In this document: one piece after another, positions 9,923 through 11,501 of the stretch
Layout: each line of letters starts with the position of its first letter
Numbering within the stretch: the stretch's first letter is position 1
Assembly (NCBI RefSeq): GCF_003334785.1
Contig: NZ_QOWV01000019.1
DNA: 64,000 nucleotides
Strand: one strand, 5' to 3'
Origin: Escherichia coli
GTDB lineage: Bacteria; Pseudomonadota; Gammaproteobacteria; Enterobacterales; Enterobacteriaceae
Made by a program: the position numbers and the translations under genes
The notes under the pieces: model-generated
The model's input: the letters and a program-made list of their open reading frames with translations, nothing else
Database searches by the model: none
What the model was told of the DNA's origin: nothing

Positions 9923-10497
9923 TGGCATTCAGAATGAGTGAACAACCACGGACCATAAAAATTTATAATCTGCTGGCCGGAACTAATGAATTTATTGGTG
10001 AAGGTGACGCATATATTCCGCCTCATACAGGTCTGCCAGCAAACAGTACCGATATTGCACCGCCAGATATTCCGGCAGGCTTCGTGGCTGTTTTCAACAG
10101 TGATGAGGCATCGTGGCATCTCGTTGAAGATCATCGGGGTAAAACGGTTTATGACGTGGCATCAGGGGACGCGTTATTTATTTCTGAACTCGGTCCGTTA
10201 CCGGAAAATGTTACCTGGTTATCGCCGGGAGGGGAATATCAGAAGTGGAACGGCACAGCCTGGGTGAAGGATACGGAAGCAGAAAAACTGTTCCGGATCC
10301 GGGAGGCGGAAGAAACAAAAAACAGCCTGATGCAGATAGCCAGTGAGCATATAGCGCCGCTTCAGGATGCTGTGGATCTGGAGATCGCAACGGAGGAAGA
10401 AACCTTGTTGCTGGAAGCCTGGAAAAAGTATCGGGTGTTGCTGAACCGTGTTGATACATCAACTGCACCGGATATTGAATGGCCAGCACTGCCGTAG
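9922..10497 (+). CDS. tfaQ: Tail fibre assembly protein, 191 aa
   Basis: ORF track; start overlaps stf remnant stop; Tfa family sequence. Confidence 0.85.
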
Positions 10498-10594
10498 GGT
10501 AAAACATATAAATTCTATAATTAGATGTATCTCTCCATTTACGGCAAGGAAGGGGGCTTGGAAGACGTAAAGCATCTCACACCGAGATTATTTT

Positions 10595-11185
10595 TTATAT
10601 GTCAGGTGTCTGAAGTTTTGCTTTGGCTCTTAAAATGGTTTGCCGCGAGGTTTTGAATTCCCGGGCAATGGCACTTATACTTACACCTGACTTAATTCGT
10701 TCGAATACCACCTGTTTCTGTTCTTCATTTAACACAGGTGGTCGACCAAAACGTTTCCCTGCGCCGCGGGCTCTTACTATCCCGGAATGAGTGCGTTCAA
10801 GTAAAAGGTCTCGTTCAAATTCAGCGACTGCTGAAATTACGTGCATCATCATTTTTCCTGTTGGACTGGTCAGGTCAATGCCCCCCAATGCTAAGCAATG
10901 CACTCTGATACCTGTTTCGGTCAGTTGTTCCACTGTTTTCCTGATATCCATTGCATTACAACCAAGGCGATCCAGTTTTGTCACAATCAATTGATCACCA
11001 CATTTCAGGCGAGCAAGCAACCGGTTAAAACCAGGACGCTCACTGGTTGCTGCTGAGCCGCTAATGTGTTCTTCGATTATTTGCTGAGGTTTGATTTTAA
11101 AACCTGCACTTTCGATTTCCCGGCGTTGATTTTCGGTGGTCTGATCCAGCGTTGATATCCGACAGTAAGCAAAAATTCGAGACAT
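10595..11185 (-). CDS. pinQ: Serine site-specific DNA invertase (Pin/Gin/Hin family), 196 aa
   Basis: ORF track; [20 protein letters not shown]... resolvase catalytic Ser motif and C-terminal HTH. Confidence 0.9.
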
Positions 11186-11501
11186 AGTGAGACTCTATAC
11201 GAAATTGGTGTTCATATCATAATGCATCTCAGAAAATAATTTTGATTATTTTTGTGCATATTTGTATGTACACGTTCGAAAATAAACGAATGCGTATGCA
11301 ACCCCGTAACTTTGGTGAGACCCAAAATCGATTTTGTGAAAAATGGCTTTAACTCGGTTTGTTTTTCGAGTTCCGGGCGGACTCAAGGAAGAAGAATAGT
11401 GTTGCGTGTTATTTTAACCAGATTTCAAGTTGTTTGGTCGTGGAAAAGTGGAGCAAAATGTTGTTAAAGTGGAAAAATGATAAAAAAGTAAGTTTATTAT
11501 A

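Follow-up and report, generated by a model that had tools for sequence, protein, structure and literature searches.

Here, we analysed a stretch of 64,000 nucleotides of Escherichia coli DNA (contig NZ_QOWV01000019.1 of assembly GCF_003334785.1, in the following "the window") with a focus on the recombinase gene pinQ and the DNA bordering it. The locus forms the ydfJ-proximal end of a cryptic prophage of the Qin type, lies in reversed orientation relative to K-12 MG1655 and shows the gene order nohA, J fragment, C-terminal stf remnant, tfaQ, pinQ and ydfK, followed by the chromosomal genes ydfJ and ydfI. Identity to K-12 is 98.8-99.7% across the region, except for a differently rearranged stf remnant. 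The K-12 reference annotates pinQ and pinR as DNA invertases; they are found in about half of the complete E. coli genomes and have lately been put forward as the prototype of a 'recombinase-activated' anti-phage system. A sequence-only reading of the window likewise took pinQ for a Pin-family invertase, left as an orphan beside a damaged tail-fibre region. Given the features described below, we consider it very likely that pinQ is rather the resolvase gene (tnpR) of a decayed Tn3-family mini-transposon of ~834 bp (10552-11385) that lacks a transposase gene (tnpA), and not an invertase with a lost segment.

The gene itself (10595-11185, minus strand) is intact, as had been claimed from the sequence. 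Its open reading frame (ORF) covers the full 196 amino acids (aa) of a small serine recombinase, which Pfam, homology and alignment assign as derived from a transposon tnpR; both the Resolvase (E 6.7e-36) and the HTH_7 (E 8.6e-11) domain are present, and only three residues differ from K-12 PinQ.

The DNA on both sides of the gene aligns to transposon sequence. By blastn, window positions 10550-11263 match a Shewanella transposon with 76.5% identity over 719 bp (E 9e-154), and the alignment spans the outer end of the right terminal repeat and tnpR and runs into the res region. The decayed 38-bp right terminal inverted repeat (IRR; 10552-10588, minus strand) has its outer end GGGG at 10552, ends 6 bp past the pinQ stop codon and agrees with the inverted repeats (IRs) of the Shewanella element and of a mini-element from ColV-type plasmids at 28/40 positions, including one 3-bp gap. 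The left terminal repeat (IRL; 11347-11385, minus strand), which reads TGAGTCCGCCCGGAACTCGAAAAACAAACCGAGTTAAAG from the outside inwards, is decayed as well and matches the ColV IRL at 27/40 and the Shewanella IR at 25/40 positions. Its local alignment to the ColV element reaches z = 6.2 versus 1000 shuffles and has an equal offset in both sequences. Directly outside the right repeat, we read the sequence AGGAA (10547-10551, unstranded), and the identical five bases stand outside the left one (11386-11390, unstranded). The repeat ends were fixed first by alignment to the reference transposon and the flanking five bases were read afterwards; an AGGAA pair exactly outside both aligned ends has a chance of about 1 in 1000. 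A target-site duplication of 5 bp is typical of Tn3-family transposition. The window copy has no tnpA. Between IRL and the res remnants lies a perfect 14-bp palindrome (CAAAATCGATTTTG, 11323-11336), at the place of which the ColV mini-element has an imperfect dyad. A promoter and terminator scan of 10450-11550 returned weak consensus matches only, none of which is used as evidence here.

The space upstream of pinQ holds the remnants of a res site. The intergenic regions of four reference elements each contain three dyads with TGTCCGAAA as the half-site, and the distance of each dyad from the ATG is fixed; the half-sites are 8 bp apart in subsite I and 14 bp apart in subsite II, while subsite III is a tight dyad. 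Alignment to this reference res places the subsite III remnant (11196-11214, minus strand; TGAACACCA-A-TTTCGTATA) shortly before the start codon of pinQ, with a right half-site TATACGAAA that shows two mismatches to the consensus. The 32-bp remnant of subsite II (11227-11258, minus strand) has its half-sites 14 bp apart and 5 mismatches in 18 positions; the homologous place has a single mismatch in the ColV and Hafnia elements. For the crossover site, i.e., subsite I (11273-11298, minus strand, again by alignment to the reference res), the gene-proximal half CGTTCGAAA is kept and the distal half is lost (ATACGCATT), which leaves more than 5 mismatches in the window, whereas the ColV subsite I is a perfect TGTCCGAAA-N8-TTTCGGACA. 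Subsites II and III thus still appear recognisable, with 2-3 mismatches per half-site. Scanning the 64 kb for a second res (TGTCCGAAA-N8/N14-TTTCGGACA, at most 5 mismatches) gave 3 and 5 hits versus 2.4 and 2.0 expected, and the sole meaningful match is pinQ's own subsite II remnant.

The relationships of the protein point in the same direction. PinQ and PinE are 38% identical, compared to 79% between PinE and Gin of D108, and phage invertases show 33-39% identity to PinQ. Within the phage collection, the near-identical PinQ group is followed only by matches of less than 61%; the Erwinia phage LS-2018a encodes a 60%-identical homolog. In a large protein collection, on the other hand, many proteins of 192-196 aa cluster densely at 76-85% identity; their genes lie both on plasmids and on chromosomes, in Escherichia, Salmonella, Providencia, Morganella, Klebsiella, Yersinia, Hafnia and Shewanella. 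Compared to two of these proteins (P0073 and P0100), PinQ is 78% identical over all 196 aa, the recognition helix included. In the alignment, this helix (TSRQTILR) resembles that of the transposon clade (TTRQTILR), where PinE and Gin have VSTLYK. That is, the helix-turn-helix of PinQ is not of the (V/L)STLY(K/R) type with which the Din family reads its half-sites, and its specificity is expected for res-type half-sites TGTCCGAAA instead of pix or gix. Judged by identity and helix type, PinQ falls outside the Gin/Hin/Pin/Cin family, and the premise of a Pin-family tail-fibre invertase is not supported. The best NCBIfam hit, 'master invertase Mpi', was discarded as well, given its 86 bits versus a cut-off of 272.

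The genes of P0100 and P0073 lie, at 9 loci, 160 bp from a divergent gene for a 994-aa protein with DUF4158 and DDE_Tnp_Tn3 domains, which NCBIfam NF033527 identifies as a Tn3-family transposase (1210-1220 bits, cut-off 500). Because these 78%-identical homologs sit divergently beside such a transposase, we assign PinQ's close relatives to the transposon resolvases (TnpR). The Shewanella baltica element (L014-L017) is a minimal 3.8-kb transposon at 4 different insertion sites, whose 38-bp terminal repeats (GGGGTCCGCTTGGAAAACGGAAAATATCCCACGCTAAG) are perfect and whose 5-bp target duplications differ, and the enterobacterial plasmid version (L010-L013) has matches in 1199 plasmid records. On ColV-type virulence plasmids (L007), an 82%-identical gene resides in a tnpA-less mini-element of ~0.85 kb with the layout repeat, ~50-bp spacer, res, tnpR, repeat. 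This mini-element (~5797-5845 and 4990-5040 of that locus) has a perfect crossover subsite, near-perfect repeats and the catalytic Arg discussed below; it is ringed by insertion sequence (IS) elements, and no matching target duplication is seen there. On plasmid p135-1 (L008, 3873-4980), IS5075 sits within the right terminal repeat of a PinQ-like mini-element. IS5075 targets Tn21-type terminal repeats, and its insertion independently supports calling these sequences transposon ends. For the parent transposon, the plasmid annotations give just 'Tn3 family transposase', and a literature search on the terminal-repeat sequence returned no name.

PinQ retains most of the residues known from Tn3 resolvase, i.e., Y7, R9, the nucleophile S11 and R73 correspond to Tn3 Y6, R8, S10 and R68, and E39 stands in place of Tn3 D36 throughout PinQ's clade. 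The residue aligned with R71 of the gamma-delta and Tn3 resolvases, in contrast, is Cys76 (codon TGT versus CGT), which is seen in the PinQ/PinR lineage alone: 112 of the 120 closest cluster representatives have Arg, and Cys is confined to PinQ/PinR-type clusters. The catalytic set (Tn3 Y6, R8, S10, D36, R68, R71) is thus incomplete in PinQ. In Tn3 resolvase, the exchanges R71A and R71K render recombination undetectable and slow down cleavage ~1000-fold (PMC2794168). Based on this correspondence, the change from Arg to Cys probably cripples PinQ catalysis.

The sequence-only reading had found no gix/hix-type crossover site near pinQ and no invertible segment beside it, and both observations were borne out by systematic searches. 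Allowing for at most one mismatch, the core AAACCNNGGTTT has 4 hits in the 64 kb compared to 2.9 expected by chance, and none of them is near pinQ. We further used a weight matrix built from 12 half-sites, i.e., from D108 gix, e14 pix and P1-like cix, which were taken from the real sequences of D108, e14 and a P1-like phage, and from hixL. Real sites score 22.8-30.7 bits in a leave-one-out evaluation of this matrix, while the best 26-mer reaches 4.8 bits in the 64-kb window and -4.8 bits in 8500-12500 (shuffled windows: 7.1 +/- 3.1). The inverted-repeat search of the window found no repeats flanking tfaQ or stf that are better than chance, i.e., no pair of inverted 26-bp sites, and in the intact phage Turner no inverted repeat exceeds 74% over 27 nt. 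Since no Din-type site is present and subsite I is halved with no other res-like dyad above chance in the window, pinQ would lack both a substrate for inversion and a usable one for resolution in cis.

We also compared the neighbourhood of the element with that of plaque-forming phages. To its left lies a deletion remnant (9321-9922, plus strand) in which an internal piece of J is fused to the C-terminal end of stf: window positions 9321-9627 correspond to an internal part of phage Turner's J gene, and positions 9719-11900 to the last ~200 bp of its stf followed by tfa, pinQ and ydfK. Relative to Turner, ~5.2 kb are gone, i.e., most of stf, lom and the end of J, which agrees with the earlier description of the tail-fibre region as a deletion remnant. 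A 95-aa ORF at 9360-9647 matches positions 612-699 of the 1163 positions of the TipJ profile. The remnant (here 9331-9730) comprises 400 bp versus 779 bp in K-12 stfQ and the two do not align; judged by this comparison, Qin is rearranged differently in the source strain than in K-12. Both genes adjoining pinQ are located outside the element, namely tfaQ (9922-10497, plus strand), the sole tail-fibre assembly gene and convergent with pinQ, and the cold-shock gene ydfK (11502-11768, minus strand), which lies upstream of pinQ and reads in the same direction. Left of the J fragment, nohA occupies 8818-9363; upstream of it, a lambda-type cohesive-end sequence GGGCGGCGACCT is kept at ~8631-8642, and a perfect 15-bp hairpin is found nearby (8737-8793).

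The deletion does not account for the absence of an invertible segment. PinQ is encoded with 98.5-99.5% identity in 11 phage records, which include Turner, HannyBb, Kati, 2H10, mEp460_ev081, Tritos and several PhiR phages. In Turner, a 3360-bp (1119-aa) stf and a single tfa are followed by a convergent pinQ after the same 97-bp gap. One stf and one tfa are also present in each of the three carrier loci that we opened in full (Turner, K-12 Rac and the prophage of an O170:H18 strain), and the sampled feature lists of E. coli carriers name one tfa. Because the same cassette occurs in plaque-forming phages that have a full-length stf and only one tfa, it was not the Qin deletion that orphaned pinQ, i.e., on the genomic evidence the orphan layout is not a product of this deletion. 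The idea that an invertible segment was lost along with the rest of Qin is contradicted both by these intact phages, which share the single-tfa layout and lack an inverted repeat, and by the terminal repeats, res remnants and 5-bp duplication of the Tn3-family mini-element in which pinQ sits.

Among complete E. coli genomes, the cassette is present in 2873/5426 and complete in 2731/5426, and 2498 of 3003 cassette records are at least 99% identical. Every copy examined, i.e., those in K-12 Qin and Rac, the Qin-site allele of O170:H18 and those of the plaque-forming phages Turner and PhiR63_1, which were examined at sequence level, occupies one and the same site. PhiR63_1 was considered as an independent insertion site given its different annotation downstream, but was dismissed, as the homology runs through the repeat into a tfa remnant. 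An empty site, i.e., the tfa flank joined directly to the ydfK flank, was sought by megablast in the 5426 E. coli genomes (0 places with a coverage of 80% or more), by blastn in the phage collection (0) and as an exact 23-mer in IMG/VR and the GTDB genomes (0 and 0).

To characterise the selection on pinQ, we used the ratio of non-synonymous to synonymous substitution rates (dN/dS). It is 0.09 between two Arg-bearing relatives and 0.14-0.16 for PinQ versus those relatives. The O170:H18 strain (L021, 2549-3139) has, at the identical chromosomal site, a Cys76 allele of pinQ that differs in 30/196 aa. The two diverged Cys76 lineages are separated by 25 synonymous and 34 non-synonymous changes (dN/dS 0.38), while neutrality predicts ~14 and ~45, respectively (binomial p ~5e-4, hand calculation). 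That is, constraint in the Cys76 lineage is relaxed about fourfold yet not lost, and the gene is neither fully constrained nor freely decaying. Near-identical alleles show non-synonymous to synonymous counts of 3:0, 1:0 and 2:2. For the O170:H18 allele, the coding synonymous rate (dS) is 0.21 and the flanking non-coding DNA is 97.5% identical, a contrast that suggests allele exchange or a mosaic. The suggestion that pinQ has simply not yet decayed holds in part: decay has reached the repeats, res site I and one catalytic Arg, and constraint has weakened, but dN/dS does not rise to 1.

Taken together, the mini-element consists of a terminal repeat, res, tnpR and a terminal repeat within a 5-bp target duplication, is located just past tfa in the non-essential arm of a lambdoid phage and is inherited with that arm. 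In the parent transposon, TnpR presumably bound three dyad res subsites (half-site TGTCCGAAA) between tnpA and tnpR, resolved cointegrates at subsite I and repressed its own promoter. In the PinQ/PinR lineage, both repeats have decayed, subsite I is halved and the R71 equivalent is Cys, such that the cassette has no partner site in cis and probably little or no strand-exchange activity. What most likely survives is DNA binding at the remnants of subsites II and III, which would overlap the promoter of pinQ and permit self-regulation, along with whatever weak trans activity may underlie a reported effect on prophage e14. The residual selection is probably owed to such DNA binding, i.e., to self-regulation, or to a trans effect that is weak or indirect. 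The transposon origin would explain why no invertible segment has ever been found beside pinQ or pinR, and it predicts a specificity for res-type half-sites TGTCCGAAA and not for pix or gix. A literature link between PinQ/PinR and Tn3-family resolvases was not found in the searchable literature. Our analysis thus argues for a correction of the invertase annotation of pinQ and pinR.

Several observations weigh against this interpretation. Both terminal repeats are just 63-70% like the reference, and the left one is significant in one test alone, in which 1 of 1000 shuffles equalled its score. All copies are at one insertion site with no independent second insertion, and the empty site was not found in E. 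coli genomes, phages, IMG/VR or GTDB; transposition is hence deduced from the repeats and the duplication and not seen directly. Among solved structures, the best match of PinQ is Gin (E 2e-30), above gamma-delta resolvase (E 3e-22), and the literature we found holds no biochemical characterisation of the reference TnpR. Finally, a dN/dS significantly below 1 means that pinQ is not simply dead, and the published effects of PinQ on the e14 P segment (30% to 88% on overproduction; lower in ΔpinQ; PMC12529663) argue for an activity that was retained despite Cys76.

These effects were described by Kirigo et al. (Nucleic Acids Res 2025; PMC12529663). According to these authors, PinQ does not invert neighbouring DNA, and their BLAST searches found no inversions in Qin or Rac. 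In trans, however, it is reported to invert the 1797-bp P segment of e14, which gives rise to StfE2, a product that blocks T2 adsorption, and T2 survivors that overproduce PinQ have an inverted P segment (PMC12529663). By quantitative PCR (qPCR), the segment is inverted at 30% in wild type and at 88% with PinQ overproduction, compared to ~49% when PinE is overproduced (PMC12529663). A ΔpinQ strain shows less P-segment inversion and is more sensitive to T2, and the PinQ effect is gone when stfP, stfE or e14 is deleted, while a ΔpinE strain remains locked non-inverted even with pinQ and pinR intact (PMC12529663). Within the passages of PMC12529663 and its preprint at hand, we found neither in vitro recombination nor a catalytic-serine mutant. 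The natural substitution in PinQ falls on a residue shown to be essential for catalysis and thus bears on this trans-inversion model. A K-12-type e14 P segment with pinE is present, at a query coverage of at least 80%, in 170/5426 E. coli genomes versus 2731-2873 with the pinQ cassette, such that the e14 target cannot explain the general retention of the cassette. Most carriers of a pinQ/pinR cassette are without the reported e14 trans target. In the Din family, the Fis-dependent enhancer normally lies inside the invertase gene, usually in its 5' part, and the lock of the ΔpinE strain is for this reason confounded as evidence.

Regarding the origin of pinQ, a Gin/Hin/Pin/Cin-family invertase whose stf/tfa segment and sites were removed by the Qin-crippling deletions appears highly improbable. 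It would account for the tail-fibre genes that adjoin pinQ as in Mu, P1 and e14, for the name and annotation as an invertase and for Gin as the best solved-structure match, and the tail region is indeed deleted; but intact phages with complete stf share the single tfa, the 97-bp tfa-pinQ gap and the lack of inverted repeats, the 64 kb hold no Din-type site, identity is 38% versus 79% within the Din family, and Tn3-type terminal repeats together with a target duplication enclose pinQ. A transposon resolvase gene could, in turn, be a functionless relic that is intact only through its recent spread with Qin/Rac-type prophages. Decay has hit the terminal repeats, res site I and the catalytic Arg alike, 2498/3003 records at a minimum of 99% identity leave little time for further decay, differences among near-identical alleles are mostly non-synonymous and dN/dS is about fourfold above that of the Arg-bearing clade. 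Still, we deem such a relic unlikely given the dN/dS of 0.38 between diverged Cys76 lineages (p ~5e-4), the full-length ORF in ~50 examples seen and in plaque-forming phages, and the ΔpinQ phenotype reported in PMC12529663.

A different question is that of present function, i.e., an active invertase kept for flipping the e14 P segment at its pix sites in trans is compatible with a transposon origin. Action on other prophage sites had been suggested by the sequence-only reading and was a sensible guess, as PMC12529663 reports the e14 inversion, but Cys76, the recognition helix and the 38% identity to PinE make direct catalysis of this inversion by PinQ questionable. We take an active invertase of this kind seriously while leaning against it. 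The data on T2 survivors, qPCR, ΔpinQ and the stfP, stfE and e14 deletions speak for it (PMC12529663); and since the core AAACC occurs in the res half-site TGTCCGAAACC as well as in that of pix (TCTCCCAAACC), weak binding is conceivable. Yet the helix is unlike those of PinE, Gin and Hin, the catalytic Arg is replaced by Cys, and ΔpinE stays locked non-inverted despite pinQ and pinR (same source). A reversible flip would moreover be predicted to settle near the ~49% seen with PinE, so that 88% suggests selection or an indirect effect, the e14 P segment with pinE occurs in far fewer genomes (170/5426) than the cassette, and in vitro recombination or a catalytic-serine mutant is absent from the passages of paper and preprint. 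Possible, but rather doubtful, is that PinQ/PinR represents a domesticated pseudo-recombinase, i.e., a transposon resolvase that lost strand exchange (R71C) and its crossover site and that weakened purifying selection maintains for its sequence-specific binding to DNA. The e14 shift and T2 resistance would then be indirect and could arise via an effect on PinE or the enhancer complex, via mixed tetramers with PinE or via selection of pre-inverted cells.

When relating the pinQ element to known systems, the closest are Tn3-family transposons with divergent tnpA and tnpR, i.e., with the layout of Tn3/gamma-delta and Tn21-like 38-bp repeats of the form GGGG...TAAG, with whose TnpR PinQ shares 78% identity and the recognition helix. 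The Shewanella and enterobacterial members also have a homologous promoter/res region and agree in the distances of the res subsites from the ATG, the repeat after the stop codon and the 5-bp duplication. Unlike them, the pinQ copy has no transposase gene, decayed repeats, a halved subsite I and the exchange of R71 to Cys, and while these elements are mobile, it occupies a single fixed site in a phage arm. Din-family invertases (Gin of Mu and D108, Cin of P1, PinE of e14, Hin of Salmonella) are similar in the small serine recombinase fold with Resolvase and HTH_7 domains, and further links are the phage tail-fibre genes next to pinQ, Gin as the top solved structure and the reported effect on the e14 P segment. 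However, these invertases have 26-bp gix/cix/pix/hix sites (12-bp half-sites, core AAACC-NN-GGTTT), alternative tail-fibre and assembly-gene cassettes in opposite orientation, a Fis-bound enhancer and 79% mutual identity versus 37-39% to PinQ, whereas the PinQ carriers examined lack 26-bp sites as well as a second stf/tfa cassette and show transposon ends in the flanks instead. The kind of element is already known from non-autonomous Tn3 derivatives such as TIMEs, mobile insertion cassettes and the ColV mini-element, although TIMEs proper carry no gene and differ in this from the pinQ element. The ColV mini-element has the same architecture at ~0.85 kb, aligns with the left end and spacer of the window copy and encodes an 82%-identical protein; its repeats are near-perfect, its subsite I is perfect and its resolvase has the catalytic Arg, while the window copy is degraded at all three.

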